Below, piece by piece: positions 1 through 63,538 of a DNA stretch of 64,000 nucleotides. A model generated the notes under the pieces. The model had not been told where the DNA came from. It was given only the letters and a program-made list of their open reading frames with translations, and ran no database searches. Within the stretch, counting starts at the first letter, position 1. Each line of letters begins with the position of its first letter. A program made the position numbers and the translations under genes. This DNA comes from Candidatus Woesebacteria bacterium GW2011_GWC1_42_9 (GTDB lineage Bacteria; Patescibacteriota; Microgenomatia; UBA8517): contig LCET01000001.1 in assembly GCA_000995185.1 (NCBI GenBank), positions 29,327 through 93,326 on the forward strand, in the 5' to 3' direction.

Positions 1-1
1 T

Positions 2-2435: not shown

Positions 2436-2439
2436 AGGG

Positions 2440-23594: not shown

Positions 23595-23595
23595 T

Positions 23596-46855: not shown

Positions 46856-47855
46856 ATATCCCTTAGTATCGATAATAATTGTTAATTGGAATGGGGGCAA
46901 GGTTTTTGAAAATTGTTTGATTTCTCTTAAGAAGATTGACTACTTAAATTGGGAACTAATTATTGTGGATAATGGTAGTACGGATGGCACCCAAAGGTAT
47001 GCAACGATAAAAAATAAAAGGAATGTCGGATTTGCGCGAGCGAATAATCAAGGTTATAGAAAATGCAAAGGTAAGTACGTTTTATTATTGAATAATGATA
47101 CTAGGGTTGAGAAACGATTTTTGACTAAGTTAGTTGGAAGAATTGAAAAAGAACCCCAAATTGGCATAATTCAACCCAAGATTTTAGTGATGGATAAGCC
47201 GACTCATCTTGATAGTGTGGGGTCATTTCTAACGCGGACTGGCTTTTTAGAGCATTATGGATTTCTTGCTAAAGATTCAAAAAAATATGACAAAGAATTG
47301 CTAATTTTTTCCGCCAAAGGCGCTTGTATGCTTGTTCGGAGAGAGGTAATTGAAAAGGTGGAATTATTTGATGGTGATTATATTTCTTATTTAGAAGAAA
47401 CTGATTTTTGCTGGCGAGTTTGGCTAGCTGGCTATAAGATCTTATATTTTCCTCAGTCGAAGATCTTGCATAAAGTCGGCATGACCTCGAAAAGATTAAA
47501 CCAAGTGATAGTTAATTATCATTCTTTTAAGAACCGCTTAATTACGCTTTTTAAAAATTTGAATGGTCTCAATATTATATTAATTGGCGGTTTGCATTTG
47601 GTTATTATTTTAGGATTGAGCTTTTATTATTTAATTCACTTTCGGTTTAAAGAAGCAATTATGGTTTGGAGGGCAATTTATTGGAATTTATCTCATTTGC
47701 CAAGCTTGGTCCGTAAAAGAAGAAAGGTGCAAAAAATAAGAACGGTAACTGACAAAGAAGTTTTTAGGTATATTTTAAAACCTGTTGATTGGCAAGAAAT
47801 GTTTGGCCATTTTTTGCGTTCAGAGAGGATGCTGGCGGGGAAGCATGAGATTTAG
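46848..47855 (+). CDS. family 2 glycosyltransferase (rhamnosyltransferase-like)
   Basis: 'PLVSIIIVNWNGGKVFENCLISL...LIIVDNGSTDGT' and 'YLEETDFC'. No in-frame ATG lies near the 5' end. The likely start is GTG at 46848 or TTG at 46827. Confidence 0.7.
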   Translation: MTEYPLVSIIIVNWNGGKVFENCLISLKKIDYLNWELIIVDNGSTDGTQRYATIKNKRNVGFARANNQGYRKCKGKYVLLLNNDTRVEKRFLTKLVGRIEKEPQIGIIQPKILVMDKPTHLDSVGSFLTRTGFLEHYGFLAKDSKKYDKELLIFSAKGACMLVRREVIEKVELFDGDYISYLEETDFCWRVWLAGYKILYFPQSKILHKVGMTSKRLNQVIVNYHSFKNRLITLFKNLNGLNIILIGGLHLVIILGLSFYYLIHFRFKEAIMVWRAIYWNLSHLPSLVRKRRKVQKIRTVTDKEVFRYILKPVDWQEMFGHFLRSERMLAGKHEI

Positions 47856-49459: not shown

Positions 49460-49546
49460 GTGTATTTTATAGCCTTAACCACTCTATGTATGAGGCTAAT
49501 AAATTTACTGTGGAGTGTCAATAACTAAAATTTTTTTTACAGTAAA

Positions 49547-50329
49547 CTACTTTATTATGGATTTTTTGAAGAATGCGGTATTTGCACGGACATAGCCTTT
49601 AGGCGTGCCGGTGTCATAAGTATGTCCGATAATTTTGATCCCATAAACATTTTGGCGAGCTTCAAGGGCGGCATGAAGAGCGTCGACATCGGTGATTTCA
49701 GTTTTAATTCTATTTTTTAACAAACTTTTTATGATTGGAAAAATTTTTGTGGTAAAAATGAAACGTCCAGACATCCTGATTTTATTATTTTTGTGGTGTG
49801 GTTTTTTGCTTGAGACTTTCGAACAAAAATGTCTAATAATTAACTTGTCGAACTTTTTTTGTGTGAGGCATTCGCCGTAGAGATCTAGGTTTTCAGGAGG
49901 AAACTTATCAAAAGAGATATAGTGAGATTTTTCTTTTAGGTAGACATTAATGAGCTGTTTTAATGCGGGTTTTTTGGAAATTATCGGGAGGTCAGGAAGG
50001 GAAACACAGAAAACGTCTTTCTTTATTAAGTTACGACAACACCAAATAGCATGAGCGATTCCCTTTGGACTTTTTTGATAAACGAATGTGTATTGTATAT
50101 TTACATGGTGCTTCTTTGTATTCACCAAATATTTTTTGATAAGTTCTTTCTGCTTATTGATTACAATGATTATGTTTTTGCATCCTGAGTAAATTGCCTC
50201 ATCAACTGTCCACTCAATCACAGGCTTATCTATAAGAGGAAGCATTTCCTTTGGGAGATATCCGGAGATTGGGGCCCATCGGGAACCTCTTCCAGCAGCA
50301 GGGATGATGCAATAATCAATTTTCCCCAA
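49547..50329 (-). CDS. sugar-1-phosphate nucleotidylyltransferase (GalU-like UTP-glucose-1-phosphate uridylyltransferase)
   Basis: 'CIIPAAGRGSRWAPISGYLPKEMLPLIDKPVIEW' matches the GalU-type signature G-x-G-T-R-x-L-P-x-T-K-x-x-P-K-E-M-L-P. Confidence 0.7.
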   Translation of the reverse strand: MGKIDYCIIPAAGRGSRWAPISGYLPKEMLPLIDKPVIEWTVDEAIYSGCKNIIIVINKQKELIKKYLVNTKKHHVNIQYTFVYQKSPKGIAHAIWCCRNLIKKDVFCVSLPDLPIISKKPALKQLINVYLKEKSHYISFDKFPPENLDLYGECLTQKKFDKLIIRHFCSKVSSKKPHHKNNKIRMSGRFIFTTKIFPIIKSLLKNRIKTEITDVDALHAALEARQNVYGIKIIGHTYDTGTPKGYVRANTAFFKKSIIK

Positions 50330-50333
50330 CGAA

Positions 50334-51062
50334 CTATTTAAACTTTATTTCATACCATAGCTGGAGTGCACTTTGAAAAGTTTGTCGAACGACTTTGAGT
50401 TTTGCGTTCTTGACTTCACCCGCAATTCTAGGATGATAATAACTTGGAGCCTCGATTATCTTGTATTTCTTTTGTTTGAAACGGACAAGAATTTCGGTTA
50501 GAAGGAAGATGCCTCCAGTGTAACGCATGGGAATTCGCTTGATTTTGCTTGTTCGCCATATATTGACCCAGCCAACATCCATGTATTTGATGTCAAAAAG
50601 TAGTAGTAGTAGGAGGAGATATCCGTACGAAAAGAAAATGCGTCGAGTGGCATAGTCTGACCGGCCCCCGCGGTAGCCAAGGACAAGATCTGCACCTTTC
50701 ATAACTTCAAAGCAATGACGCATATCATCGACTAAAAACTGACCATCAGCAGGCATGTAAGCAACAAATTCTTTTTTACTGGCTTTAATGCCTGCAAGCA
50801 TTGCTTGGCTATAGCCGCCATTTGATTGGTGGATGACACGTACACTTTTATTTCTTTTAGCGATTTGATCAGCTATTTTTCCTGTCTTATCAGTGCTGCC
50901 GTCATTAACAACTATTATTTCGTAATCTTTAAAATAATTTGGGAGGGATTTAAGAGTATTTTTGAGAATTGTCCGAATATTTTCTGCCTCGTTGTATGCA
51001 GGGATGACGACAGCAAGACTTGCTGATATTTTACTCTGTTTCATTTGGCAGAATATTAACAT
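50334..51062 (-). CDS. polyprenol-phosphate sugar synthase-like GT2 (DPM1-like)
   Basis: 'LAVVIPAYNEAENI...IIVVNDGSTDKT', 'YMPADGQF'. The start may be a downstream ATG (MKQSK). Confidence 0.7.
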   Translation of the reverse strand: MLIFCQMKQSKISASLAVVIPAYNEAENIRTILKNTLKSLPNYFKDYEIIVVNDGSTDKTGKIADQIAKRNKSVRVIHQSNGGYSQAMLAGIKASKKEFVAYMPADGQFLVDDMRHCFEVMKGADLVLGYRGGRSDYATRRIFFSYGYLLLLLLLFDIKYMDVGWVNIWRTSKIKRIPMRYTGGIFLLTEILVRFKQKKYKIIEAPSYYHPRIAGEVKNAKLKVVRQTFQSALQLWYEIKFK

Positions 51063-51068
51063 ATTTTA

Positions 51069-51746
51069 GTGAAGGATGTTATTGATAAATATTTGTGGTT
51101 TAATATGTTGGCGATGGATGAGGTTATAAAGCTGTATCAGAAAGACGGCGGTTTTGTAAGAGTGTTTTCAAAAATTAGATTTTGGGACGCTCCGTATAGT
51201 ATTGTCGAAAGAATCGTACCGGAAAAAGGGAACATTGTTGAAATTGGCTGCGGGGAGGGAATATTTACCAATTATTTAGGGATAACTTCTCAAAAGCGAG
51301 ATATTCTAGGGATTGAGATAAATAGGAAAAGACTTGGCAAGGCGAATCGAGGCATTAGAAATGTAAAGTTTAAATATGGGGATGCAACTAAAGTTAAGTT
51401 GCCGAGAGCAGACTCAATTATTTTGTTTCATTTATTGCACCACTTGCTATCTTTCAGTGATCAAGAGAAGGTAATTAGGAAATGTCTTTTGGCGCTCAAG
51501 CCAGGAGGAAAATTAATTATTGTAGAAGTAGATAAGAAGTTTAGTTTAAAGTATTTATTTACTTGGTTGACTGACCATTTTTTTGTGCCCTGGGTATTTG
51601 AAGGACGCTTTTATTCTCCGATTTTTTTTAGGAGTGGGAAAGATTGGTTGAGTGTTTTGAATAATCTGGGGATGAAGTGTAAAGCTAGATCGGCAGAAAA
51701 AGGAATGCCATTTACCCACATTATCATCAGCGGGGTTAAATATTAA
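51069..51746 (+). CDS. class I SAM-dependent methyltransferase
   Basis: 'IVEIGCGEGIFT' and 'LKPGGKLIIVE'. Confidence 0.7.
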   Translation: MKDVIDKYLWFNMLAMDEVIKLYQKDGGFVRVFSKIRFWDAPYSIVERIVPEKGNIVEIGCGEGIFTNYLGITSQKRDILGIEINRKRLGKANRGIRNVKFKYGDATKVKLPRADSIILFHLLHHLLSFSDQEKVIRKCLLALKPGGKLIIVEVDKKFSLKYLFTWLTDHFFVPWVFEGRFYSPIFFRSGKDWLSVLNNLGMKCKARSAEKGMPFTHIIISGVKY

Positions 51747-52484
51747 TTATTTTTTTTGGAGCGTGATCGTAGCGAACATGCTAATTTGTGGGACTTGTGT
51801 GCTGATAAGGTTATCAATTATTCTAATTGGGTTATAGAGAAAGCTTGGGAGAAGTTGTGGGAGTTTGAGCCCGCCTGAGAGTAAATAAAGGAATGGAGTG
51901 TGAAGTCTGATTGAGATTAGTTTTAGACCTGGAAAGATATCATTTAGTTTCTCCTTGTCGCGGTAGAATATAATCCATGGTAATGCTGTATTTGAATCAG
52001 ACATTCTCCCCCTACCACTAGTTTTCCAATTTTTAGTTTTAGGATCATAGTGTTCGTGATGCAGGTATTTATAGACGAATTTCCCCCAGAGTGAATTCCA
52101 AGGCTCGATCATGATGATTTTCCCTTTTGACTTTAATGTACGCTCCATCTCATAAAGTGCTTTTTGAGGATCTTTAATATGATGAAAAACATCAAGCATA
52201 ATGTATGCCGAAATTGAAGAATCCTTATACGGGATTTTGGTGGCGGAAAAAACTTTATCAATACCCGGCCCTTTGATAATGTCAGAAGTAGTGAGATTGC
52301 CAATAACGTCTTTAGTAAAACCACCACCAGATCCAAGTTCGATAATTGGACCTTCAGGGATCCTTTTTGGATTTAATTGGCTATAGAAATTAAGATAAAT
52401 CTGTTTTAAAAAATACTTTTCTAGAATTTTCCGCTTATCAGATGATATGTTTTCTGGATTGTCGATAGTTTTCATTTTAATCAA
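51747..52484 (-). CDS. class I SAM-dependent methyltransferase
   Basis: 'IIELGSGGGFTK' and 'LKSKGKIIMIEPW'. Confidence 0.7.
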   Translation of the reverse strand: MIKMKTIDNPENISSDKRKILEKYFLKQIYLNFYSQLNPKRIPEGPIIELGSGGGFTKDVIGNLTTSDIIKGPGIDKVFSATKIPYKDSSISAYIMLDVFHHIKDPQKALYEMERTLKSKGKIIMIEPWNSLWGKFVYKYLHHEHYDPKTKNWKTSGRGRMSDSNTALPWIIFYRDKEKLNDIFPGLKLISIRLHTPFLYLLSGGLKLPQLLPSFLYNPIRIIDNLISTQVPQISMFATITLQKK

Positions 52485-52509: not shown

Positions 52510-53787
52510 ATGAGACATAGTTATTATTTTGAGAAAAATTTAAAAACCTTAGAGTTTTTACTTCCCAAAAATTGTAAGGTATTAGTTAACGGCGAACAAG
52601 GGGGTTTCATTTCTCGAAAATTGAAACATGTTCGGCCCGATCTAACGGTTGATACCACTGATAGAAAGATGAGTGGAAAGTATGATTATATTTTTTTATA
52701 TGGACAGCTTGGGAAGAGCGAGAACATAATGCAGTTGCTATATGAGACAAAAAAATTAGCGAAACCTACTTCAAGGGTGATTATCTATCAGCACAATCAT
52801 CTTTGGCAAGGAATATTAACATTATTGGAACAATTAGGAGCGAAAAGGAAAGAAGGGATTTTTAATTGGTTGTCTGTCGGAGATGTCAAATCATACACGA
52901 GCGCTTCAGGGATAGAAGTGACGAGAATTTATAGGAGAACTTTGATCCCAGTTGAGTTGTTTGGGTTGGGGAAATTAGTTAATAAATTGGCTGTTATCCT
53001 TCCGTTTTTTGATTTTTTAAAACTCGATCAATATCTTGTTTGTAGGGTGATTATGCCGGAGACGAAGTCGATGGGTTTAACGATTTGTATTACAGTTCGC
53101 AATGAGAAAGAAAACATTGAACCGATTGTTAAATCATTGCCAATCTTGACCGAAAATCAGGAAATATTATTTGTTGAGGGAAACTCGACTGACGGGACAA
53201 GAGAGGAGATTAGGCGTGTCTTGAGAAAATATCCAAGAAAAAGTGTGCGTGTAATTGGTCAGCCTGGGAAGGGCCAGGGAGACGCGATCAGAGTAGGTTT
53301 TAAACACGCCGCGTACGAGGCGGTTGTGTTATATGAAGGGGATGGAACTTCCGATCCTGATGACGTTAGATTTTACTTTGACGCACTTCGTAGTGGCCAA
53401 GCAGAATTTATTGAGGGAAGTCGATTTGTTTATCCTAGAGAGCGTGAGGCAATGCCGTTTGTAAAACAAGTTGGAAATATCTTTTTTGCTGTTTGGTTTA
53501 GTTTCTTTTTGGGGCAGAGAACCACAGATGTATTAAGCGGTATAAAGGCAATAAGAAAAGATCTTTATTTAAGGATTTACGACAATTGGGGATATTTGGG
53601 AGTATCTGATCCTTTTGGGGATTTTGAACTTCTCTTTGGCGCTGCCAGGTGGGGTTTGAAATTTGGTGAGATTCCTATGAGATATTATCCAAGACAATAT
53701 GGTCGTCCCAAAACCAATGTGTTAACACATGGCCCCGTGCTGTTAAAAATGGCAGTGATTGGGCATTGGGTATTTCGTGGTAATTAA
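52510..53787 (+). CDS. two-domain protein: N-terminal Rossmann-like (degenerate methyltransferase-like) domain fused to a DPM1-like GT2 domain
   Basis: The C-terminal half carries 'LTICITVRNEKENI...FVEGNSTDGT' and 'YEGDGTSDPDD'. The N-terminal 190 aa form an alpha/beta-like domain without a clear GxGxG motif. Confidence 0.6.
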   Translation: MRHSYYFEKNLKTLEFLLPKNCKVLVNGEQGGFISRKLKHVRPDLTVDTTDRKMSGKYDYIFLYGQLGKSENIMQLLYETKKLAKPTSRVIIYQHNHLWQGILTLLEQLGAKRKEGIFNWLSVGDVKSYTSASGIEVTRIYRRTLIPVELFGLGKLVNKLAVILPFFDFLKLDQYLVCRVIMPETKSMGLTICITVRNEKENIEPIVKSLPILTENQEILFVEGNSTDGTREEIRRVLRKYPRKSVRVIGQPGKGQGDAIRVGFKHAAYEAVVLYEGDGTSDPDDVRFYFDALRSGQAEFIEGSRFVYPREREAMPFVKQVGNIFFAVWFSFFLGQRTTDVLSGIKAIRKDLYLRIYDNWGYLGVSDPFGDFELLFGAARWGLKFGEIPMRYYPRQYGRPKTNVLTHGPVLLKMAVIGHWVFRGN

Positions 53788-53812: not shown

Positions 53813-55684
53813 ATGAATATGAAGATACCTCAAATTGAACCATATATAGGGAATGAGGAATATAGAGAGTTGAAGTCTTGCTTTGATAATAAATGGGTGA
53901 CTGAGGGACCAAAGACCCAAGAGTTTCAAAAAGAATTGTTAAAGTTAATTGGAGCAAAGTATGGTGTCTTTGCGCCCAATGGCACTTTGGCCTTGTATCT
54001 GGCTCTAAAGGCGATTGGCGTTGGAGAAGGCCATGAAGTAATAGTCCCCGATTTTACATTTATTGCTTCAGCGACATCAGTGATTATGGCAGGTGCAAAG
54101 CCTGTATTTATAGATGTTAACCGGAAAAATTTTCAGATTGATGTAAATTTAGCACAGAGTTTGATTAACAAGAGGACCAGAGCAATAATGCCCGTACACA
54201 TGTATGGAACGATGTGTGAGATGGGTCCGATAATGGACTTTGCGAATACTAATAAATTAAAGGTAATAGAAGATGCAGCGCAAGCAGTTGGAGTTAAATA
54301 CAGAGGAAAGCATGCGGGAACATGGGGGGACATAGGTTGCTTTTCTTTTTTTGCTGACAAAACCATTACAATTGGCGAGGGCGGCTTCATTGTCACCAAT
54401 AGTGAGAGTGTATATGATAAATTACTTTATTTAAGGAACCAAGGGAGGAAAGATAGAGGGACTTTTATCCATCCAGAGATAGGTTATAATTTTAGGATTA
54501 CTGATTTCCAGAGCGCTGTCGGACTTGCACAACTCAGAAAACTTCCTCGAATAATTCAGCTTAAAAAGGAGATTTTATCTTATTACTTGAGAAATTTATC
54601 ACACATAGAGGGAGTAAAGATATTTGAGCCGTTTGTTGGTTATGATTGGATCCCATTTCGTGTAGGTATTATGGTGGACAATGCTGATATGTTAATGGAG
54701 TATATGGAAAGTAAGGGGATTCAAACTAGAGGTTTTTTTTACCCATTACACAAACAACCGGCATTTAAAAGCATCGTCGGTTATCAGGAAAATGATGTGT
54801 CTTTTCCCAATTCATCCTGGGGTTACAAAAGTGGAGTCTGCCTTCCCACATATCCGACACTAAGTAAAGATGAAATCAGATATATATGTAAGACAATTAA
54901 AGATTTTGTTCACAGCCAAAGAAGTATGTTTTATAAATATTATGATTTGATGTATTCGGAAAAAAATTATGAAAAAGAAACCGATTTTGTCTTCAAAGTA
55001 GTAGGTCTTGGAGACAGTGGAAAAACAAAAAAAATAAAAGTACTCGAAATAGGCTGTGGGACCGGAAACCACACCAGAAAAATACTTGACAGAAAAAAAG
55101 TTGGAAAGTTGATAGCGATTGATATCGATGAAAAAATGATTAATCTGGCAAAAAAGAAACTCGGAGGAGAAAAAAAACTATCGATTTATTGCAGTGAAGT
55201 ATCTGCTCTTGGTGAAAAGGAATTTGACTTAGCATTGGCTTTATTTAATGTTGTTACCTATATTTCAAAGGAAAGTGAGTTAGAAGAATTTTTCAAGGCT
55301 ATTTACGAAAGGTTAAAGAGTGGGGGGTATTTTGTCTTTGATGCATGGAATGGTGTGGCGGCCATAAAATATCCACCAAAAAAGAAGAAAACTATTTATA
55401 AGATTAGTAAGGGCTTTCTTGAAGTAAGTATTTTACCCCAAGTTAATATCTTGGACCAGAAGGTTGATTTGAATTATCAAATGAGGAAATCATTTAATGG
55501 TGCGGAGAAGAAATCAAACTATATTATTAATCAATATCTTTGGACACCAAACCAATTGAGGAATATATACCAAAAAGTTGGGTTTGAACAGAAGGCTATC
55601 AGGTCTATGGACGAACCAGATCACGAGGCAACTAAAGATGACTGGAAAATAATCTACGTATTGGTTAAACGTTCAGAAAAATAA
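53813..55684 (+). CDS. fusion of DegT/DnrJ/EryC1-family PLP sugar aminotransferase (N-terminal) and class I SAM methyltransferase (C-terminal)
   Basis: The N-terminal 380 aa carry 'GHEVIVPDFTFIASATSVIMAGAKPVFIDV', 'IEDAAQAVGVKYRGKHAGTWGDIGCFSFFADKTITIGEGG' (PLP-lysine region) and 'LRNQGR'. The C-terminal domain carries 'VLEIGCGTGNHT' and 'LKSGGYFVFDAWNG'. Confidence 0.75.
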   Translation: MNMKIPQIEPYIGNEEYRELKSCFDNKWVTEGPKTQEFQKELLKLIGAKYGVFAPNGTLALYLALKAIGVGEGHEVIVPDFTFIASATSVIMAGAKPVFIDVNRKNFQIDVNLAQSLINKRTRAIMPVHMYGTMCEMGPIMDFANTNKLKVIEDAAQAVGVKYRGKHAGTWGDIGCFSFFADKTITIGEGGFIVTNSESVYDKLLYLRNQGRKDRGTFIHPEIGYNFRITDFQSAVGLAQLRKLPRIIQLKKEILSYYLRNLSHIEGVKIFEPFVGYDWIPFRVGIMVDNADMLMEYMESKGIQTRGFFYPLHKQPAFKSIVGYQENDVSFPNSSWGYKSGVCLPTYPTLSKDEIRYICKTIKDFVHSQRSMFYKYYDLMYSEKNYEKETDFVFKVVGLGDSGKTKKIKVLEIGCGTGNHTRKILDRKKVGKLIAIDIDEKMINLAKKKLGGEKKLSIYCSEVSALGEKEFDLALALFNVVTYISKESELEEFFKAIYERLKSGGYFVFDAWNGVAAIKYPPKKKKTIYKISKGFLEVSILPQVNILDQKVDLNYQMRKSFNGAEKKSNYIINQYLWTPNQLRNIYQKVGFEQKAIRSMDEPDHEATKDDWKIIYVLVKRSEK

Positions 55685-56065
55685 CTTATCTTCTTTGTAT
55701 GGTCCGTTTTTTAGTTCCAATATTTTTGTGTCTTCAAGAATTTTGAATTCGTGTCCGCCAGATAGGGTGAGAAGTGCTTCTCCTGAAGTTAGGGTAACTG
55801 ATCGGATAAATATTTGTTTATCGGAATACAATTTAATTTTTATTTTACCGGAAATGACTATGAAACACTCCTGAAGAATGCTTGTAGTTCGTTTTGTCGG
55901 TTTGTGTTGGTGTCTTTTGAGAGTAGATCCTTTTTTGTGATTCAATGTCAAAAGGCCTAACGCTTCTTCACCTTTGCCTAAGCCGGTGTGTGGCACTGAG
56001 CCCTCTGGGTATTCACCATTTATAATAATGGCAATGGCTTTTTTGCCATCGAAAACCGTTTTCAC
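55673..56065 (-). CDS. small cupin-fold protein, possible nucleotide-sugar 3,4-ketoisomerase (FdtA/WxcM-like) or epimerase
   Basis: 130 aa with beta-rich '[28 protein letters not shown]' (a His-containing cupin core). It overlaps gmd by 4 nt and lies next to the aminotransferase gene. Confidence 0.4.
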
Positions 56066-57141
56066 TTTAGGTTGATTTTACCATGTTGAACTTCCACCTT
56101 GAAACCAGTTTTTGATTCCTTTTTAGCGAGGTCATAATCGTGTTTTGTCATTAAAGTAGCAAGAGCACTAAAAGTTACCTTTGGTTTCCATCCGAGGATT
56201 TCCCGAGCTTTTGAAGAATCACCTATAAGAATATCAACTTCAGATGGTCTAAAATAGACAGGGTCGATTTCGATGACTGTCTTATTTGTGTTTTTATCGA
56301 TACCTTTCTCATCTACACCTTTCCCTTTCCAAATAATATCCATATCAAGATTTTTTCCGACTTCTTGTACAAATTCCCGCACGGTATGTGTTTCACCAGT
56401 CGCGATTACAAAATCATCCGGCTCATGATGTTGGAGGATACTCCAAATCGCGTTTACGTAATCCTTGGCATATCCCCAGTCTCTTTTGGCATCGAGATTT
56501 CCAAGCTTAAGCACTTCTTGGACGCCGTGTTTAACTCGCGAGAGACCGAGCGTGATCTTCCTAGTTACAAATGTGTAGCCCCGCCGCGGGGACTCGTGAT
56601 TAAATAATATTCCATTTGAAGCAAATAATCCGTAACTATTACGGTACACTTTGGTGATATAAAAGGCAAAAGTTTTTGACACACCATATGGAGATTGCGG
56701 GTTAAATGGAGTAGTTTCTCTTTGAGGGGTTTCAAGGACTTTGCCAAACATTTCGGAGGAACTTGCTTGGTAATATTTGGATGGAATTTTGAGATCACGA
56801 ATTGCATCTAGTAGTCTCAGTGCGCCCAGACCATTCACTTCCGCAGTGTATTCGGGAACATCAAAACTTACTTTTACATGGCTTTGAGCGCCGAGGTTAT
56901 ATATTTCATCAGGATCGATTTTAGAAATTATGCGGCTCAGATTAGAACTTTCTGAAAGATCGCCGTATAAAGTGGAAAATTGTGGGTATTGGGGATTGTC
57001 AAAGATGTGATCTATTCGATAGGTATTACTTAAGCTGCTTCGCCTTTGTATGGCATATACTTCGTACCCTTTTTCCAAAAGAAGCTCGGCGAGGTATGAA
57101 CCATCCTGACCTGTGACTCCGGTGACTAAAGCTCTTTTCAT
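56062..57141 (-). CDS. gmd: GDP-mannose 4,6-dehydratase
   Basis: It is near-collinear with E. coli Gmd: '[25 protein letters not shown]', '[14 protein letters not shown]', '[35 protein letters not shown]', '[20 protein letters not shown]', '[13 protein letters not shown]'. Confidence 0.93.
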
Positions 57142-57170: not shown

Positions 57171-58679
57171 CTACTGTAAAAACTTAATTTTTTCTCCTGC
57201 CCGATACTTCTCGGTTAAATTGATGACCTTCCCTCTTGCAGGATCAAAACTACTACCACTTCTTTCGTAATCGTAATCAAATATAAAGACGTTTTCGCTA
57301 TTACTTCTGAATTCTTCTTCCCACCCTGGAAGTGGCAGAGCGAATGCAAACCCAAGAGGTGCGTAAAAGAGTTTAAACATCGGATTTGGCCAGCCGAGAT
57401 ATGACGGGGTAATCATGATGGACTCAGAGGTAAACTGGTCTGAAATTGATTTCGTGTAGGTTATAAATCTTTGCATCATTTCGGACGAGTATTGGATAGA
57501 GTCGATATGTTTGTTGATAATAATTGAATTGGAGATGACATAGATTGTTAGGATAATCAGAGAAGAAAAAAAGTATAGGCGCTGTCTTTTGGAGAACAAC
57601 ACATAGAGAATAATTGACCAGACGATCGAAAGCAAAATAGTTGAAAGGAAAAATTGCCTGCTTTGACCAATGCCTTTGTAGACATCAAGCTTTACATCCA
57701 CATAAACATAAAGAAACATGATCGATAATGCTCCGAGGAGACTTGTCAAATAAAGCTTTGTTAATCGACTCTCACCTTTGCGTATCCAGAAAATTACTCC
57801 AATATAAATTATGAGTAATACCTTTGTAGATAAATCAACGGCTTTAGTAAACGGATAGCTGAGTGAACCGTTCGGCCAATTTTTTGCGATCAATTTGATT
57901 ATGTCCGGCGGGAGGCTGATGATAGGGACTTGATAGGTAGTTTTTTGTATAACCCTGTCTTGAATAAGAACGAATTTTAGAGGATTTGTGGTTGGTTTTT
58001 GACCATCTTGGCTGTTGAAAATGTAGCTGATGGCGACAAACGGAATTGTGAGTGTGACCCCTAATGCGAGGCTTTTTATTTTAGATTTGCTGTCAATGAA
58101 TTGAACCAGCGGTAAAATAACAAACACGGGCAACATGAAAGTAGAAAAATGAGCCAGAAAAACGGCCATCATGAACAAAGCAACAGAAGTTACATAAAAT
58201 ATAAATCTTTTTTTTAGGAAAAACTTTTCTAGATAGTAAAAAGCGATGAGAGTAGGGAGCATGCCAGGGACTCGTTGAAGAAACCATTGATATTGCCCTG
58301 CGGCCATCATGCCAAATGAACCAATATAATTAGCCAGGAAGAAAACCGCGGATGAAAATCCGATAAGTGGGCTTTTAGTTATTTTAGTAATGATTAAAAA
58401 GAGAGTTGCATGCAAACTGCTTATAGTCAGCAAGAGGAAAAGTTGATAAAGGCGGATATTGTCACCAAATATTGGCGGAAGAATATCAAAGATTATTTTG
58501 GCAAAAATATCAAGTTGTTCCAAGGGTTTAAAATTATCCAATTTCGAAAAGAAGTCTTGGGATCGATCGAAATAATAATACCCTTCACCTAAGAATACCT
58601 GGTCAAGAATCTTGTGCCAGACAATAAAATCCAAGGCGAAAATAACTGTGATGATTAAAAAGAGTCGGCTTTTATTCAT
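57171..58679 (-). CDS. polytopic membrane protein of unknown function (possible glycan polymerase or GT-C-like)
   Basis: 502 aa with about 12 or more hydrophobic segments and a C-terminal soluble tail of about 100 aa. No recognisable motif. Embedded in the glycan cluster. Confidence 0.4.
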
Positions 58680-58715: not shown

Positions 58716-60899
58716 ATGCCACAACTTATAGCTTTTGTCCGTAAAAATCAATGGTTGCTTTTGATACTCTTTTTAGCATTTCTATTTCGATTTGTTGGCG
58801 TCAGGCCAGGCTATAACTCTTTTCATCCCGATGAGCCGATCTTAACAGGAAAGGCCATACAGATGATTAAAAGAGGAAACTTAGATCCTGGACGATACGA
58901 CTATCCAACATTGTCAATATATATCGATTTTCTATTTTTCAAATTTTTTTTCACTCCCATTTATTGGATGAAATATTACTTGACTAATATCGTTGGTATT
59001 ATTGACGGAGTAATCCATATCCCCCCAAGCGCATTGGAGGCCAAGCGGCTTTTTCAGGTTGAAATATTAGGAGTAAGAGACATTAGCGCTTTATTTTGGG
59101 GGAGGTATGTGTCGGCATTATTTAGTTTAGGATGTGTTTTTTTAATTTATCTATTGGGATGTAAATTATTTAATAAATCTATCGGCCTAGTTGCAGCCTT
59201 TTTGTTAATTTTTAATTTTAAGCATGTTGCTAATTCACATATCAACTTACCAGACACTTATAACTCGTTCTTTTTACTTTTATCAATTATTGCGAGCGTT
59301 AATCTTTGGCAGAGACCTTCCAAAAAAAATTATATATTGGGTGGTATTGCTGCAGGACTATTTTTTTCAACAAAGTATCAATTTTTTGCCCTATTCCCTT
59401 TTGGACTAGCACATTTATATCGCTCAAGAAACCCCTTTAGTTATATTTTTATATCCTCGGGATTGGTGTTTCTTTTGGTGTTTTTAATTTTAAATGCTTA
59501 TTTTTTTATAAACATAGAACTTGCGTTGTATTGGATGGCAAGTGTTTCTGGACGATATGCAGTTGGAACAAATAATCTAAATTTATTTCCTCTTTCTTAT
59601 CTTTATAAAGTTGACTACGGGCAATTCGAGTCGATCATGATCTTGATTGGAAGCATTTTAATTCTGAGAAAATCTTTTCGAAAAGGTTCGTTTCTTTTTG
59701 TAACAGTTATTCCTTTCGCTTTTATGTTTCTTTATTATACAGGCGGGGGATTGTTTGTTAGAAATTTCATTACTATCACGCCAATCTTATTATTATTGGC
59801 GGCTTATGGTATTTGGAATATATATAAGTTTTTTAACAAGAGGATAATACCAGCTTTTTCTACATTAGTTTTGTTTTTTTTGTTGTTGGGGTCAGTTTAT
59901 GTCCCTGCTAAAAATAGTTTGATTAATTCTTATTACTATACTAAGCCGTGGAATATTAATGTTTTAAAAGATTGGCAAAGACAAATTTTACCCGACAGTG
60001 TTGCGATCGCTGCCCACCCCTTTGATCCCGTTGAAGGACCGTCTAATGTCATCCGATCTGAATTTGAAATAAGTGGCAATTACTCTTTGAATGAGCACAG
60101 GGAAGCTGGGGCTGACTGGGCTTTAGTTAACCTAATGTGGGCAGCTAACCCTTTTTATTTTTGGATGGGCTATGGTTTTAAGGATTTAAATATTTATTGG
60201 GATAAGCCAATTGACCAATTGCGCAACATGTACCACGGCTTGGCTACAGAGGAGCTATTTCGTTATCAAGTTTTTTCGGTCACTAAGCCTTGGCAGGCGC
60301 CCGAGTTTAATTATGTGATGATCAAGTTTCCGGAGTGGCCTGAGGTGCAGATGAAAGCACTTAAATTATTTGATTTTAGCGACGGTACACAGGGGTGGAG
60401 TTTTGGTTATGACGACAAGATAGGCCACAGTAGCCCCGGATCTATCGCGGTAGAGTTATCTGGAGATAAGTTTCCTTATAAGCGAATAACTTCTGAACCA
60501 ATGGAAGTGAAACCTGGCCGCCTTTATAAAGTGGAAGGTTTCCTAAAGACAGGAGCGATACTCCCTTCAAATCAGAGAGATGGTTTGTTGCGAATTGATT
60601 TTTACAGTGAAGTTATTTATTCTGCTGATAGAGTTGGCTTGATTAGTTCAGTTTCGTCACGTGCGTGGGGACCAGATGATTGGTTTAAGAAGCAAGTAAT
60701 TGAGCGTGCTCCTGGCGGTGCAAAATACATGGTTGTAAGTTTGCAGGTTGGTTCATCTGGAAGGACTAAAATATGGGCTGACGATATCGTAGTAGAAGAG
60801 TCAGATTCTGAAATTGTTGAGATAACATCTCAACCTCCGTATCTTGACAAACCTATCGATTTAAATTTACTTTACTTTAATTCAATTGGTAATTTATGA
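58716..60899 (+). CDS. GT-C PMT_2-like membrane glycosyltransferase fused to a C-terminal carbohydrate-binding (CBM_4_9-like) domain
   Basis: 'FHPDEPILTGKAIQMIKRGNLDPGRYDYP' DE motif and a TM-rich core of about 420 aa. The C-terminal 'FDFSDGTQGWSFGYDDKIGHSSPGSIAVELSGD...GRLYKVEGFLKTG' has a CBM beta-sandwich character. Confidence 0.55.
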   Translation: MPQLIAFVRKNQWLLLILFLAFLFRFVGVRPGYNSFHPDEPILTGKAIQMIKRGNLDPGRYDYPTLSIYIDFLFFKFFFTPIYWMKYYLTNIVGIIDGVIHIPPSALEAKRLFQVEILGVRDISALFWGRYVSALFSLGCVFLIYLLGCKLFNKSIGLVAAFLLIFNFKHVANSHINLPDTYNSFFLLLSIIASVNLWQRPSKKNYILGGIAAGLFFSTKYQFFALFPFGLAHLYRSRNPFSYIFISSGLVFLLVFLILNAYFFINIELALYWMASVSGRYAVGTNNLNLFPLSYLYKVDYGQFESIMILIGSILILRKSFRKGSFLFVTVIPFAFMFLYYTGGGLFVRNFITITPILLLLAAYGIWNIYKFFNKRIIPAFSTLVLFFLLLGSVYVPAKNSLINSYYYTKPWNINVLKDWQRQILPDSVAIAAHPFDPVEGPSNVIRSEFEISGNYSLNEHREAGADWALVNLMWAANPFYFWMGYGFKDLNIYWDKPIDQLRNMYHGLATEELFRYQVFSVTKPWQAPEFNYVMIKFPEWPEVQMKALKLFDFSDGTQGWSFGYDDKIGHSSPGSIAVELSGDKFPYKRITSEPMEVKPGRLYKVEGFLKTGAILPSNQRDGLLRIDFYSEVIYSADRVGLISSVSSRAWGPDDWFKKQVIERAPGGAKYMVVSLQVGSSGRTKIWADDIVVEESDSEIVEITSQPPYLDKPIDLNLLYFNSIGNL

Positions 60900-63538
60900 G
60901 ACGGTATAAAGTATTTTTATTAATTACTGTCCTTATTTCTTATGGCCAGATATTGGGGATGGGTGTATGGAAAGATGATAACGCTATTTTTTTTAAATTT
61001 ACCCATGTCAACGAACCGACAGGGTTTTTCGGGACTGGTATTTTGGGTCAAGGACCATACCGGTTTTCAATCACTCCATATTGGTTTGTCTATCAATTGG
61101 TCGGATATGAACACATTTGGGCATATTATCTACTAATTTTATTTTTTTATTTTTTGATTGCCTTCTTGGTTTATAAGGTCTTTTCTAGAATAATATCACC
61201 ATTGGGTGGTCAGGTTGCAGGATTACTTTTCGCAGCTGGATATGTCGCTTCGGAAGGATACTTTTGGGTTGCAAACGCGATGTTAGCAAATGCGAGTATG
61301 GTGATTGACCTCTTGATCCTACTATTTTATCACCTCTATTTTCAAAAAAAGAGATTGACCTATTACTTATTTGCATTAGGGCTTTATTGGTTGGTTTCTT
61401 TCCTTATCCCCTTGAGGAACTATTACTTTGTTTCTATTGTGATAATTTTTGAGTTAATACACATAAATTTGCGAAATCTACCCAGAGCAATCTTAACATC
61501 ACTAATAAGATTGGTTCCTTTTGGGATAGTTTTTCAACGTTATTTTTTGAGCCAGATGGATGGTAGAGCAGTTTCGGTACAGAATTTTTTTGTCTCATTG
61601 AGGGGTGGTGATTTATATCTGACACAAGGATTCTTGTCGTCAATTGCCAGCTTGATTATCCCAGACTGGTTCGTGTTTTGGTTGTTCCGATATTTTCCAC
61701 CGAGGATCGCTCTTTTTTGTGTCATTTCACTATTTTTTATTGTTTTGTTTTTTCTTTTTAGGAGCCAGAGAAGAAAGTTTTTAAAGATTGTTTGTTTTAA
61801 TTTGTTTGGTATTGTTTGGTTGATTGTTTCTAGAAATCTATATGATACGCCCGTCCTTGCACTTGTCCCTGTCAGAATATTTATTATCCGGTTGGGGGGT
61901 CTAGTTTTAATCTTAGCTTTAAGTCTTCTTTTTACTCTCCCAAAAAAAATGAAGGGCCAGTTCTTCTTTTTCTTTTCTTGGTTTGTGATCAGTATTGCCG
62001 GGTATACTTTTTACGAACCAAAGGCATACCTGGGGACGACCCATCGTTATTTTGCGCATTCTCTGGTTCCTTTGGCCGGGGTTTTAGCTGTTGTTTTTGT
62101 TGCCGTAAAACCAAAAAATCTCTGGACTAAACTGGTTAGATCAATGATTATTTTTTGGGGACTTACGAATTTAGTTAGCTCGGTGATTTATCAAAATAAA
62201 ATATTGAAAGAACGAAGTATTCCAGTTAGGAATTTCTATGTGCAGTTAAAAGATCACCTTGAAAGGGTTAAACCCGGGGATGTTTTTTACTTTGATGTAG
62301 CGAAAGAGTCAGCATCACAATTTGGAGATGCCTTCAAGGTTTCTTCAATGCCGAATGAAACTGCGATAGCGTGGCGTTATGGTGTTGACAGGAATGACTT
62401 TCGTCTTTTTGACGATTTTGATAGTTTTATTATTTGGGTTTGGGATAATAAGCTCACAAGAGAGCAAATTCACACTTATTATTATTCCAAAGAAGGGTTG
62501 GTTGATACTTCAGTACAGACTTGGCACTATTTAAAAAACAAAGAGGGATACAAGGAATTGAACGTAACTGCGCAGAGAAGCAACGGAGGATTGGAAATTG
62601 CCTTTGACGAACCGATTAATTCTGTTTCTCCTCTTGAATTTGAACTTGGTATAAGTGCAAAGCCATTAGCAGTTTCAGAGCTTTCTTTTCCATATCACAA
62701 TGATGTGGCTTTATTTTCAAATAAGTTGGCCGGAGATTCTTCTTTACGCCAGAGCGCCTTTGACTATCAAAAACAAAAAGAGTCGTTGATGGCAAGGGCG
62801 AGAATTAGCACCAATAGTACATGGTTTGGAGATGTGGCTGACCACTTGATAGATGGTAATTTAGGGAGTGTTTGGCGCTCTCATAGAGTATTATGGTCAA
62901 AGGAAAAGTCAACGAATTTAACCGTAGATCTAACCACGGAATTGTCAGTTGATAGATTTGTTTGGTATAACGCTTACTCTAATAATACGCCTACGAGATA
63001 CCGGCTCGAGCTATCTTCTGATAATCAAGATTGGCTAACAGTTTATGAGTCGGAAGGTCAATATCGAATTGAGCCCAACGAGATACAGGTCATAAAGTTT
63101 AATCCCAGAAGAGCGAGATATGTTCGGATGACTATTACTAAAACCTTGAGTGATGATTCACCAGGGGTAGCTGAAGTTTGGGTAGTGCCGTCCAGTTTCG
63201 ATAATTTAGATATTGTAGAGGCAGAGTCGTTTCTGTCGCAGCCATTTGCATTCGTACCCAATGGGCAAGATTATTTGGACACCCTAAGGAATGTCGGCTA
63301 TATAGGTAGGGCGACGATCTATTGGGAAGATAATCAACGAAAAGAATGGACGACGAAGTTTGGATCAGAGGTCCGGCCCATGTATAACTCTAGCGATCAT
63401 TTATACACAGTTTATGTGCCCTCAAGAGGAACAAAAATTGAAAAAATAAGAATAGCTGATACAACAATACCAGGGGAGATTGAGATAACTAGTGTGAGAT
63501 ATAGACATCTTACTCTGGAGGAGATTTTGATAAGATGA
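60896..63538 (+). CDS. large polytopic membrane protein (GT-C-like) with a C-terminal F5/8 type C (discoidin) domain
   Basis: A TM-rich N-terminal 430 aa is followed by a soluble region. The C-terminal 'FGDVADHLIDGNLGSVWRSH...LTVDLTTELSVDRFVWYN...YRLELSSDNQDWLTVY...ARYVRMTI' fits the discoidin consensus closely. Confidence 0.6.
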   Translation: MRRYKVFLLITVLISYGQILGMGVWKDDNAIFFKFTHVNEPTGFFGTGILGQGPYRFSITPYWFVYQLVGYEHIWAYYLLILFFYFLIAFLVYKVFSRIISPLGGQVAGLLFAAGYVASEGYFWVANAMLANASMVIDLLILLFYHLYFQKKRLTYYLFALGLYWLVSFLIPLRNYYFVSIVIIFELIHINLRNLPRAILTSLIRLVPFGIVFQRYFLSQMDGRAVSVQNFFVSLRGGDLYLTQGFLSSIASLIIPDWFVFWLFRYFPPRIALFCVISLFFIVLFFLFRSQRRKFLKIVCFNLFGIVWLIVSRNLYDTPVLALVPVRIFIIRLGGLVLILALSLLFTLPKKMKGQFFFFFSWFVISIAGYTFYEPKAYLGTTHRYFAHSLVPLAGVLAVVFVAVKPKNLWTKLVRSMIIFWGLTNLVSSVIYQNKILKERSIPVRNFYVQLKDHLERVKPGDVFYFDVAKESASQFGDAFKVSSMPNETAIAWRYGVDRNDFRLFDDFDSFIIWVWDNKLTREQIHTYYYSKEGLVDTSVQTWHYLKNKEGYKELNVTAQRSNGGLEIAFDEPINSVSPLEFELGISAKPLAVSELSFPYHNDVALFSNKLAGDSSLRQSAFDYQKQKESLMARARISTNSTWFGDVADHLIDGNLGSVWRSHRVLWSKEKSTNLTVDLTTELSVDRFVWYNAYSNNTPTRYRLELSSDNQDWLTVYESEGQYRIEPNEIQVIKFNPRRARYVRMTITKTLSDDSPGVAEVWVVPSSFDNLDIVEAESFLSQPFAFVPNGQDYLDTLRNVGYIGRATIYWEDNQRKEWTTKFGSEVRPMYNSSDHLYTVYVPSRGTKIEKIRIADTTIPGEIEITSVRYRHLTLEEILIR

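Follow-up and report, generated by a model that had tools for sequence, protein, structure and literature searches.

The GDP-perosamine synthase Per (RfbE) of Caulobacter crescentus (3BN1/3DR4/3DR7) is a stand-alone DegT fold-type I PLP aminotransferase of approximately 370 aa that acts at C4, and the GDP-specific C3 aminotransferases NysDII and AmphDII are likewise Per-like. The 3,4-ketoisomerase step of GDP-mycosamine biosynthesis has long been assumed to be either spontaneous or orphan. In dTDP-sugar pathways, FdtA, QdtA, Tyl1a and WlaRB are cupins of approximately 130-140 aa, carrying an HxH pair, whose genes lie between those for a 4,6-dehydratase and a DegT aminotransferase, while TylM1 and DesVI are dTDP-3-amino-sugar N,N-dimethyltransferases, separate polypeptides of actinomycete antibiotic pathways that act after the separate aminotransferases TylB and DesV. 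FdtD/WxcM (PDB 4MZU) provides a precedent for uniting two sugar-nucleotide tailoring activities, from consecutive or nearby steps, in one polypeptide, its cupin and LbH domains forming a ketoisomerase-N-acetyltransferase. The ArnB-ArnC-ArnT route to lipid A aminoarabinose combines a DegT aminotransferase, a GT2 polyprenyl-phosphate loader and a GT-C membrane enzyme that hands the cationic sugar on outside the cell, and uses UDP-Ara4N with transient N-formylation.

A locus of Candidatus Woesebacteria bacterium GW2011_GWC1_42_9, found in a 64,000-nucleotide stretch of DNA (the window), resembles each of these systems in part. Its aminotransferase shares with Per the fold, an aligned catalytic lysine and a gmd neighbour, but carries a C-terminal methyltransferase domain and has an orphan cupin as its partner. 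Unlike TylM1 and DesVI, this methyltransferase domain is fused to the aminotransferase and occurs in a gmd (GDP) context, within a CPR cell-envelope glycosylation island; the fusion also differs from FdtD/WxcM in both its domains and its nucleotide. The enzyme types are already known, but there is no characterised counterpart of the fusion, of its predicted sugar or of the orphan cupin that accompanies Gmd.

Results

The preliminary description had placed three ORFs, encoding the fused protein, the cupin and Gmd, and the ORF listing gave identical coordinates, strands and lengths (Table 1). It had also reported that the fusion and cupin genes converge with a 12 nt overlap, which is seen at 55673-55684. 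The GTG start codon of the cupin gene shares bases with the TGA stop codon of gmd (GTGA), an arrangement typical of translational coupling. Chance can be excluded for these genes, given the long ORFs and very strong HMM matches.

Table 1. Features of the module and of its neighbourhood, in window coordinates
Feature	Position	Strand	Basis
B12-radical SAM protein	47852-49459	-	
GalU-like NTP transferase	49547-50329	-	
Second GT2 gene	50334-51062	-	
Second methyltransferase gene	51069-51746	+	
Methyltransf_11 methyltransferase, 245 aa, adjoining the GT2-fusion pair	51747..52484	-	family scan
GT2 protein, 425 aa, candidate dedicated transferase	52510..53787	+	PF00535
Fusion ORF, 623 aa	53813..55684	+	ORF listing
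Fusion N-terminal domain, DegT PLP sugar aminotransferase, perosamine-synthase-like	53813..54907	+	PF01041, PDB matches
Fusion C-terminal domain, class I SAM methyltransferase, TylM1/DesVI-type (small-molecule N-methyltransferases)	54908..55684	+	
WbuC-like orphan cupin, 130 aa, probable modifier (predicted) of the Gmd product	55673..56065	-	
gmd, GDP-mannose 4,6-dehydratase, 359 aa	56062..57141	-	TIGR01472, PF16363
Polytopic membrane protein, 502 aa, head of the mem502-gmd-cupin operon	57171..58679	-	~9 hydrophobic segments

The fusion in the 623 aa ORF is genuine and conserved. The architecture is found in approximately 31 clusters, the 30 others having 41-62% identity at 95-100% coverage, and the identical protein is present on 10 contigs, which rules out an assembly or frameshift artefact as its source. 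The authors of the preliminary description were not aware of a characterised aminotransferase-N-methyltransferase fusion in a GDP-sugar pathway, and no characterised fusion of this kind was found in the literature searched here.

The identification of Gmd was upheld, as the protein scored 501.1 bits against the TIGR01472 equivalog model (cutoff 415) and matched PF16363 (E=4e-140), with an SDR fold. Its family membership marks it as a genuine GDP-mannose 4,6-dehydratase, and that activity is predicted for it. The gmd and cupin genes are convergent to the GT2-aminotransferase(-methyltransferase) genes in seven related loci (L001-L004, L007, L010 and L090). The genes manB and manC were not co-located with the module.

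The cupin belongs to a family of at least 315 clusters, for which no Pfam match was found among the 120 listed or 104 scanned, with weak Cupin_2 and cNMP_binding matches in some members (scan at E<=5). An AlphaFold2 model (pLDDT 91.6) has a cupin beta-barrel. A tblastn search of plasmids with the cupin returned nothing but rhizobial plasmid proteins annotated as hypothetical. WbuC (TIGR04366) was the sole family model to match all 33/33 diverse members tested (best E 1.7e-10), and these members matched no other model. With the 130 aa protein itself at 35.6 bits against a cutoff of 42, this indicates that these cupins form a remote sister family of WbuC. The name WbuC derives from L-FucNAc O-antigen clusters, and both families occur in sugar-nucleotide (4-keto-6-deoxy) gene clusters. 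NCBIfam describes WbuC as a 'cupin fold metalloprotein', and the literature found mentions it only as a neighbour of mcr-9/blaCTX-M.

The cupin adjoins gmd in 65/80 genomes, spanning CPR bacteria, Bacteroidota, Proteobacteria, Actinomarina and an archaeon, with downstream enzymes that include an aminotransferase, a TcaB9-type C-methyltransferase with an SDR, an aldo-keto reductase or an Fcl-like SDR. As some of these loci have no aminotransferase nearby, the role of the cupin cannot be tied to amination.

This pairing with gmd, whatever the downstream tailoring enzyme, would suit a C3, C5 or C3,5 epimerase of GDP-4-keto-6-deoxymannose, analogous to RmlC, WbcA or the Zn cupin of CapF, in which case the fusion would make an N-methylated, non-manno 4-amino-4,6-dideoxyhexose. 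This is a possible reading, if a tentative one. It draws on WbuC being the only family common to every member, and on the precedent of the CapF cupin domain, which epimerises a 4-keto-6-deoxy sugar nucleotide in a Zn-dependent manner (PMC5393024). Yet none of the 104 members matched PF00908 (RmlC) even at E<=5, so that RmlC-type membership was not found; hhalign gave a probability of 0.3% against an RmlC-like cupin (from L009), and CapF matched poorly in Foldseek (prob 0.54, TM 0.23). Furthermore, while the H52-x-H54 pair is invariant, the third canonical metal-binding histidine (H105) is just 65% conserved in the CPR branch, making an obligate 3-His metal site doubtful.

The preliminary description had instead likened the cupin to FdtA-type 3,4-ketoisomerases, on the basis of its size and position. 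The module would then be a GDP version of the mycaminose pathway, in which the cupin isomerises GDP-4-keto-6-deoxymannose as an analogue of Tyl1a and FdtA, the aminotransferase acts at C3 in the manner of TylB or NysDII, and the product is a 3-(di)methylamino-3,6-dideoxyhexose, an N-methylated sugar of the mycosamine type. Each of the four enzyme types in the Tyl1a/TylB/TylM1 route has a counterpart in the module, 3-amino sugars are the substrates of both DesVI and TylM1, and the order of cupin, LbH acetyltransferase and DegT genes in non-CPR genomes mirrors both FdtA/FdtC/FdtB and the WxcM/FdtD fusions. The HxH pair occupies a place comparable to that of the catalytic His49/His51 of FdtA, and the incomplete conservation of H105 in the CPR branch also counts in favour. 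The top Foldseek matches in the PDB were WlaRB, QdtA, HCAN_0198, FdtA and FdtD, at weak, non-significant values (E~0.02-0.07), with titles among them naming the FdtA mutants H49N/H51N. The likeness of the cupin to FdtA is weak, made up of the invariant HxH, the position and these structural matches, and did not extend to family membership, leaving the ketoisomerase assignment unproven. PF05523 (FdtA/WxcM) matched 0/104 members even at E<=5, hhalign gave a probability of 1.4% against an FdtA-like cupin (from L002), and no ketoisomerase emerged from PDB searches with the single sequence, a 104-sequence profile or a 33-sequence cross-phylum profile, which yielded noise or, at best, a generic metal cupin. 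The cupin also differs from FdtA, QdtA, Tyl1a and WlaRB in a 7-residue insertion after the HxH, in its own conserved C-terminal LEIKNGP..D+ motif, and in its context, which is GDP rather than dTDP. The general epimerase is the better fit to the loci in which the cupin and gmd accompany a TcaB9-type C-methyltransferase/SDR or an aldo-keto reductase without an aminotransferase, and the nearest relative of the aminotransferase is the C4 enzyme Per. Overall, this reading is doubtful. Its fullest form, in which the cupin is the first dedicated GDP-4-keto-6-deoxy-D-mannose 3,4-ketoisomerase, the module is the GDP counterpart of the dTDP-mycaminose pathway, and the fusion makes a previously undescribed GDP-3-(di)methylamino-3,6-dideoxyhexose, delivered by polyprenyl phosphate to the CPR envelope as a cationic sugar, is unlikely. 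Literature searches on GDP-sugar ketoisomerases, and on PDB entries 7B0M/7B0D, returned nothing relevant.

It is less probable again that the cupin is irrelevant to the sugar, serving instead in regulation, in binding or, like phosphomannose isomerase, in the supply of mannose-6-P, with the fusion making plain N-methyl- or N,N-dimethyl-D-perosamine. The parts are separable, as L090 has an aminotransferase lacking a methyltransferase, and the aminotransferase-methyltransferase pairs of L005, L009 and L091 lack the cupin; the best PDB profile match was the metal cupin quercetinase (E=0.016), and the weak Cupin_2/cNMP_binding matches would also be compatible with such a role. However, the tight pairing with gmd in many phyla, with translational coupling, points to the product of Gmd as what the cupin acts on, manB and manC are not co-located, and organisms that already have ManA still keep the cupin inside a sugar-tailoring operon.

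The N-terminal half of the fusion was confirmed as a DegT-family aminotransferase, with PF01041 (DegT_DnrJ_EryC1) covering aa 11-362 at E=4e-108 (362 bits, spanning positions 2-359 of the 360 in the profile). Its proposed action on a sugar was supported by the nearest solved relative of aa 10-356, the Caulobacter GDP-perosamine synthase (3bn1/3dr4/3dr7, E about 2e-72 to 7e-72). Per scored 246-247 bits, against 173-169 for ArnB, WbpE and QdtB, 124 for E1 (3bb8) and 107 for ColD, while every NCBIfam equivalog model scored below its cutoff. Lys183 (FFADKTIT), invariant in the 31 fused homologues, aligns with the Schiff-base lysine of Per (FFGNKIIT), which is alanine in the 3dr4 K-to-A mutant. An amino-acid aminotransferase was rejected, such matches being weak and partial. 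Amination at C4 is favoured by this homology to Per, with the caveat that neither the substrate nor the choice between C3 and C4 can be told from DegT sequence. The name given by NCBI to the 623 aa protein, CDP-4-dehydro-6-deoxy-D-glucose 3-dehydratase (E1/ColD-type), agrees with an NCBIfam RfbH match of 183.5 bits but is highly improbable, as that score is far under the cutoff of 423, E1 and ColD trail Per, Lys183 is invariant where E1 and ColD have a histidine in place of the Schiff-base lysine, and the neighbour is gmd rather than a CDP-glucose dehydratase. H188 is noted in ColD (PMC8987622).

The C-terminal half proved to be a class I SAM methyltransferase, as had been described, matching Methyltransf_25/11/12 over aa ~405-510 above cutoffs (E=4e-15 to 3e-13) and keeping all the SAM-binding motifs. 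Motif I (E412-I-G-C-G-T-G418), the acidic D437 at the end of beta2 and a DesVI-like N-terminus (YD..KDY..E) are invariant among fused homologues. The earlier analogy with TylM1 and DesVI also held, the domain having an N-terminal helix with this motif, a C-terminal beta-sheet lid and significant similarity. By fold (AF2 model, pLDDT 94.3) and profile it groups with DesVI, TylM1 and other small-molecule N-methyltransferases, at an identity of only 16-24% to TylM1/DesVI; the fold group also includes one C-methyltransferase, PsmD, and the closest structures, 1wzn, 1y8c and 3d2l, are uncharacterised. The two halves are adjacent genes overlapping by 14-23 nt in Levybacteria (L009), Gottesmanbacteria (L091) and L010, which supports a functional link between them, and there was 1 fused representative among the 150 best methyltransferase relatives. 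From the fold, the motifs and this pattern of fusion and splitting, we infer that the domain N-methylates an NDP-aminosugar. The fused L005/L006 and split L009 and L091 lack gmd and the cupin nearby, having SDR, GHMP-kinase, SIS and NTP-transferase genes instead, which suggests GDP-heptose-type substrates in those lineages.

The preliminary description had proposed seeking a dedicated glycosyltransferase for the product, and a candidate ends 25 nt upstream of the fusion. This protein combines a degenerate methyltransferase-like N-terminal domain with a GT2 domain (PF00535 at aa 191-340), and has no predicted TM helix. Its NCBIfam matches were to AglJ (90.6 bits, 1e-25, cutoff 325) and the Dol-P hexose transferase (54 bits, 8e-15, cutoff 375), with ArnC at only E=0.0066, while its sole PDB sequence match was the GDP-Man-dependent Pyrococcus dolichol-P-mannose synthase 5mlz (E about 3e-10). 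The domain appears to be of the polyprenyl-phosphate sugar synthase type (DPMS/AglJ-like), and it lies directly upstream of the aminotransferase in every relative (L001-L007, L009, L010, L090 and L091).

The 502 aa membrane protein matched no Pfam or NCBIfam family, and its homologues in L001, L004, L007 and L009 (26-34% identity) are again encoded next to the module. It is possibly a GT-C-like transferase using a lipid-linked sugar, and the island is rich in PMT_2/GT-C proteins. Together with the GT2, these polytopic membrane proteins suggest, by analogy, an Arn-like lipid-carrier route, a context-based step given that the GT2 falls well short of the AglJ/DPMS cutoffs and the membrane protein of 502 aa is without a family match. 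The preliminary description had missed both the upstream DPMS-like GT2 and this lipid-carrier context.

Homologues of the 245 aa methyltransferase occur at 42-63% identity in L001-L007, L009 and L021. The gene order from the B12-radical SAM protein to the second methyltransferase is kept in the closest relatives (L001-L004), and these genes probably serve another pathway within this island, for a second sugar or for a modification.

Discussion

Combining these assignments yields a pathway of six steps. Firstly, Gmd would convert GDP-mannose to GDP-4-keto-6-deoxy-D-mannose. Secondly, the coupled WbuC-like cupin would act on this keto-sugar, probably as an isomerase or epimerase. Thirdly, the DegT domain of the fusion would transaminate the keto-sugar, most likely at C4, as its closest homologue does. 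Fourthly, the fused TylM1/DesVI-type domain would use SAM to methylate the new amine once or twice. Fifthly, the DPMS-like GT2 would transfer the resulting (di)methylamino-6-deoxyhexose from GDP to polyprenyl phosphate, and sixthly, the island's GT-C and polytopic membrane proteins would attach the sugar to an envelope target. The outcome of this Arn-like route would be a cell surface bearing a cationic sugar, and the whole sequence, from Gmd through to lipid-carrier delivery, is on balance somewhat probable. The low equivalog scores of the aminotransferase, the homologues without gmd and the cupin nearby, and the presence of PsmD in the methyltransferase fold group count against it. The proposal of a GDP-linked, N-methylated amino-6-deoxyhexose in the preliminary description was largely right, in keeping with Gmd, the Per-like aminotransferase, the DesVI/TylM1-type domain and the split gene pairs, but the FdtA-type role it suggested for the cupin was not established. 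That the fusion channels substrate from aminotransferase to methyltransferase is pure speculation.

The parallel with the Arn pathway is one of enzyme types, as the aminotransferase, the polyprenyl-phosphate loader and the GT-C membrane enzyme can each be matched. The chemistry differs, with a sugar derived from a GDP-6-deoxyhexose, and predicted N-methylation, in the Woesebacteria module. The acceptor may differ too, as CPR bacteria have, to our knowledge, no lipid A.

No mention of N-methylperosamine was found in the literature searched, and, if confirmed, the product, an N-methylated amino-6-deoxyhexose linked to GDP, would be new among the nucleotide sugars. The protein making it would be the first characterised aminotransferase-N-methyltransferase fusion, of interest for glycoengineering, and a function would be gained for an orphan cupin family, a possible source of the missing isomerase or epimerase of GDP-ketosugars. 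Confirmation would also reveal an Arn-like lipid-carrier route in ultra-small CPR bacteria, by which a cationic sugar is displayed at the surface, and so bear on the way in which the envelopes of these episymbionts are built and charged.

Gene organisation and the conserved fusion

The three open reading frames placed at this locus by the preliminary description were recovered with the same coordinates and strands, as was the 12-nt overlap of the convergent fusion and cupin genes. The cupin start codon GTG overlaps the gmd stop codon TGA as GTGA, which indicates that this pair is translationally coupled, and G+C content is ~37% throughout the window. Public names of identical proteins place the source genome in Candidatus Woesebacteria, a lineage of the candidate phyla radiation. 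The assignment of gmd (GDP-mannose 4,6-dehydratase) is settled at the level of sequence family, its product scoring 501 bits against the cutoff of 415 for the TIGR01472 equivalog and matching PF16363 with E=4e-140.

Features of the window and of related genome loci (L numbers) discussed in the text
Locus	Feature	Coordinates	Strand	Remarks
Window	Glycosylation island	21323-30093, 38025-43208, 58716-63538		very large
Window	B12-binding radical SAM, GalU-like NTP transferase, GT2	47852-51062	-	block
Window	Degenerate methyltransferase-like N-terminus + GT2 domain	52510-53787	+	425 aa; ends 25 nt upstream of fusion
Window	Aminotransferase-methyltransferase fusion	53813-55684	+	ORF, 623 aa
Window	Cupin	55673-56065	-	ORF, 130 aa
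Window	gmd	56062-57141	-	ORF, 359 aa
Window	Polytopic membrane protein	57171-58679		502 aa; ~9 hydrophobic segments; heads gmd-cupin operon
L005/L006	Aminotransferase-methyltransferase without gmd and cupin	1-6601		fused or split
L009	Aminotransferase-methyltransferase without gmd and cupin	11463-15862		fused or split
L001	Fused deoxysugar enzyme	13927-17497	-	765-770 aa
L002	Fused deoxysugar enzyme	13973-17590	-	765-770 aa
L062	gmd/Fcl-like SDR/cupin/(LbH)/DegT operon	5922-9936
L032	gmd/Fcl-like SDR/cupin/(LbH)/DegT operon	5951-9417
L015	gmd-cupin without aminotransferase	6047-9532
L017	gmd-cupin without aminotransferase	5849-10243
L019	gmd-cupin without aminotransferase	5928-9200

The proposed single-ORF fusion was borne out. 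The DegT_DnrJ_EryC1 model aligns over its full length with residues 11-362 (E=4e-108), and residues ~405-510 match Methyltransf_25/11/12. An assembly or frameshift artefact is excluded, because 10 contigs carry an identical protein and 30 more clusters formed at 90% identity repeat the architecture (599-650 aa, at 41-62% identity and 95-100% coverage), with both halves conserved in alignment. Only a few residues link the halves of these homologues, with the exception of one that has a 30-residue linker.

Three relatives instead encode a separate aminotransferase (370-374 aa) followed by a methyltransferase of the same family (251-264 aa), the genes overlapping by 14-23 nt: Levybacteria (L009), Gottesmanbacteria (L091) and a genome labelled Saccharibacteria (L010). 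The Beckwithbacteria locus L090 has the aminotransferase without such a methyltransferase. When 1.84 billion representatives were searched exhaustively by HMMER with the methyltransferase domain, 66 relatives reached E<=1e-30; the best 150 contained only one fusion of this kind (619 aa), nearly all the others being stand-alone proteins of ~250 aa. Thus the fusion is a rare, derived state, and the adjacent gene pair the common one, which supports the two enzymes acting consecutively on one substrate, while falling short of demonstrating channelling.

The same methyltransferase family also occurs at the N-terminus of longer proteins with other architectures (proteins P0340, 499 aa, and P0384, 555 aa). 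Where the aminotransferase-methyltransferase lacks gmd and cupin (L005/L006, L009), its neighbours are SIS isomerase, GHMP kinase, NTP transferase and SDR genes, a set resembling GDP-heptose biosynthesis. Hence in these lineages the pair may act on different GDP-ketosugars, such as heptose-derived ones.

Relationships of the two catalytic domains

The best solved relative of the aminotransferase domain is the Caulobacter GDP-perosamine synthase, Per (3bn1/3dr4/3dr7; E~2e-72, 247 bits, aa 10-356), followed by 7b0m (224 bits), ArnB, WbpE and QdtB (173-169 bits), E1 (124 bits) and ColD (107 bits). Matches to amino-acid aminotransferases were short and weak, and that reading was rejected in favour of the sugar aminotransferase originally suggested. 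All NCBIfam equivalog scores fall below their cutoffs, so that the exact substrate and regiochemistry are predictions. The public NCBI name for the fusion, 'CDP-4-dehydro-6-deoxy-D-glucose 3-dehydratase', is very unlikely to be correct, as the Schiff-base lysine of Per has its counterpart in Lys183 (FFADKTIT), which is invariant in 31/31 fused proteins, whereas the E1 and ColD dehydratases use His at this position. The His188 of ColD is noted in PMC8987622. The NCBI entry therefore appears misannotated; JGI names homologues 'perosamine synthetase', overlooking the methyltransferase half.

The SAM-binding residues on which the preliminary reading depended are kept in the methyltransferase half (the METHYLTRANSFERASE domain), motif I (LEIGCGTGNH), Asp437 at the end of beta2 and the N-terminal YYD..KDY..E motif all being invariant in the alignment of fused homologues. 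Its analogy with TylM1 and DesVI also gained support: among PDB sequences the domain profile matches DesVI (E=2e-14), 5bsz, deposited as 'N-methyltransferase' (E=3e-12), CalS10 (E=2e-10) and TylM1 (E=4e-10), with YD..KDY..E, GxGxG and FxxxxY/FDxW in register. The methyl acceptor is an amine for every characterised neighbour of the domain except PsmD, a C-methyltransferase.

A cupin family associated with Gmd

The FdtA-type identity suggested for the cupin is a lead rather than a membership, as sequence searches were negative and the structural ranks non-significant. AF2 models it with confidence as a cupin barrel (pLDDT 91.6), and profile searches turned up proteins of 120-135 aa in at least 315 clusters. 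Pfam gave no match for the cupin itself, and no Pfam domain is on record for any of the 120 clusters listed; neither FdtA (PF05523) nor dTDP_sugar_isom (PF00908) matched any of 104 members, even at E<=5. Profile searches of PDB sequences found no sugar cupins, and hhalign probabilities were 1.4% against an FdtA-like and 0.3% against an RmlC-like cupin. The sole family model matched was WbuC (TIGR04366), on which the cupin of the window reaches 35.6 bits, below the cutoff of 42, and which 33/33 diverse members match (best E 1.7e-10). Foldseek ranked the 3,4-ketoisomerases WlaRB, QdtA, HCAN_0198, FdtA and FdtD at the top, with non-significant E values of 0.02-0.07 and TM of 0.39-0.48. Invariant residues are H52, H54, E66, K119 and D126, and R59 is almost invariant; H105, the canonical third metal-binding His, is 65% conserved in the candidate phyla radiation (CPR) branch and >=90% conserved in a wider 33-sequence alignment. 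A second paralogue, 44% identical (P0212, UV74_C0010G0004), lies on another contig of the same genome.

Genomic context was examined in 80 species-level loci encoding a cupin relative, from CPR phyla, Bacteroidota, Proteobacteria, Actinomarina, Planctomycetes, Firmicutes and a Micrarchaeia archaeon. Within 4 kb of the cupin, gmd was present in 65/80 and a DegT aminotransferase in 59/80, with both in 49/80; the methyltransferase domain occurred in only two. Non-CPR loci have the gene order gmd, Fcl-like SDR, cupin, (LbH acetyltransferase), DegT, as checked in L062 and L032; this operon is conserved in about 45 other loci, spanning all the non-CPR groups sampled. CPR loci that lack an aminotransferase close by show gmd-cupin in one of two settings: with an aldo-keto reductase and glycosyltransferases (GT4/GT2), or with a TcaB9-type C-methyltransferase, an RmlD-like SDR and a short SDR. 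Therefore the cupin serves several GDP-deoxysugar branches and is partnered with Gmd, not with the aminotransferase; its substrate is most plausibly GDP-4-keto-6-deoxymannose.

The neighbouring glycosyltransferases

The 425 aa GT2 protein was absent from the preliminary account of the module. Its best NCBIfam matches are to the AglJ and dolichyl-phosphate hexose transferase models, and its only PDB sequence match is a GDP-mannose-dependent dolichol-phosphate-mannose synthase (E=3e-10). A GT2 gene lies directly upstream of the aminotransferase, fused or split, in 11/11 aminotransferase-bearing related loci checked. The 502 aa membrane protein has no family match, and recurs beside the module in other loci.

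Beyond the module, the window forms an island in which PMT_2/GT-C, GT2, GT4 and methyltransferase genes are gathered. Several of its membrane glycosyltransferases are of PMT_2/GT-C type (659, 676, 727 aa); the island also holds five ORFs in a row, of 538-560 aa, and an 880 aa membrane protein with an F5/8 type C (discoidin) domain. The radical SAM block is conserved beside the module in the closest relatives (L001-L004); its radical SAM protein is PhpK-family-like (104 bits, under cutoff), and the block may carry out radical C- or P-methylation of a second sugar. The fused deoxysugar enzyme of related Woesebacteria joins a TcaB9-type C-methyltransferase (Methyltransf_13/14) to an SDR epimerase/reductase, and adjoins an SDR and a 128-131 aa FdtA/dTDP_sugar_isom-like cupin.

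A proposed route to an N-methylated aminosugar

These demonstrated family memberships, with all activities inferred, make the following overall scheme moderately probable. Firstly, Gmd would convert GDP-mannose to GDP-4-keto-6-deoxy-D-mannose. Secondly, the cupin may epimerise or isomerise this product. Thirdly, the DegT domain would transaminate the keto-sugar, with C4 favoured since no other solved enzyme comes as near to the domain as Per. Fourthly, the fused methyltransferase would place one or two SAM-derived methyls on the amine. The GT2 protein, which is DPMS-like, would then move the sugar onto polyprenyl phosphate, from which membrane transferases would deliver it to an envelope acceptor.

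The alternatives turn on the cupin. A general epimerase, with precedents in RmlC, WbcA and CapF, which has a Zn-dependent cupin domain (PMC5393024), fits its genomic behaviour no less well than does a 3,4-ketoisomerase; if the cupin is an epimerase, a non-manno 4-amino epimer, compatible with the main scheme, is a tentative possibility. Amination at C3 following ketoisomerisation by the cupin, as a GDP analogue of Tyl1a/TylB/TylM1, would accord with the Foldseek ranking, and is rather unlikely given the kinship with Per; unlikelier still is the reading in which the cupin fills the gap of a 3,4-ketoisomerase for GDP-ketosugars and the product is a GDP-3-dimethylamino sugar. That the cupin, coupled as it is to gmd, is irrelevant to the sugar of this module is improbable.

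Every enzyme type in the module is already known, and aminotransferase then N-methyltransferase is the textbook order for dTDP sugars. What is new is the fusion itself, its GDP/gmd context, the predicted product and the orphan Gmd-associated cupin family; the literature searched, with incomplete coverage, yielded no mention of methylperosamine and no characterised aminotransferase-N-methyltransferase fusion. By gene type, the components of the proposed scheme resemble ArnB (DegT), ArnC (GT2) and ArnT (GT-C). Hence the module would reproduce, by type, the logic of the Arn system, in which a cationic aminosugar is exported on a polyprenyl-phosphate carrier.
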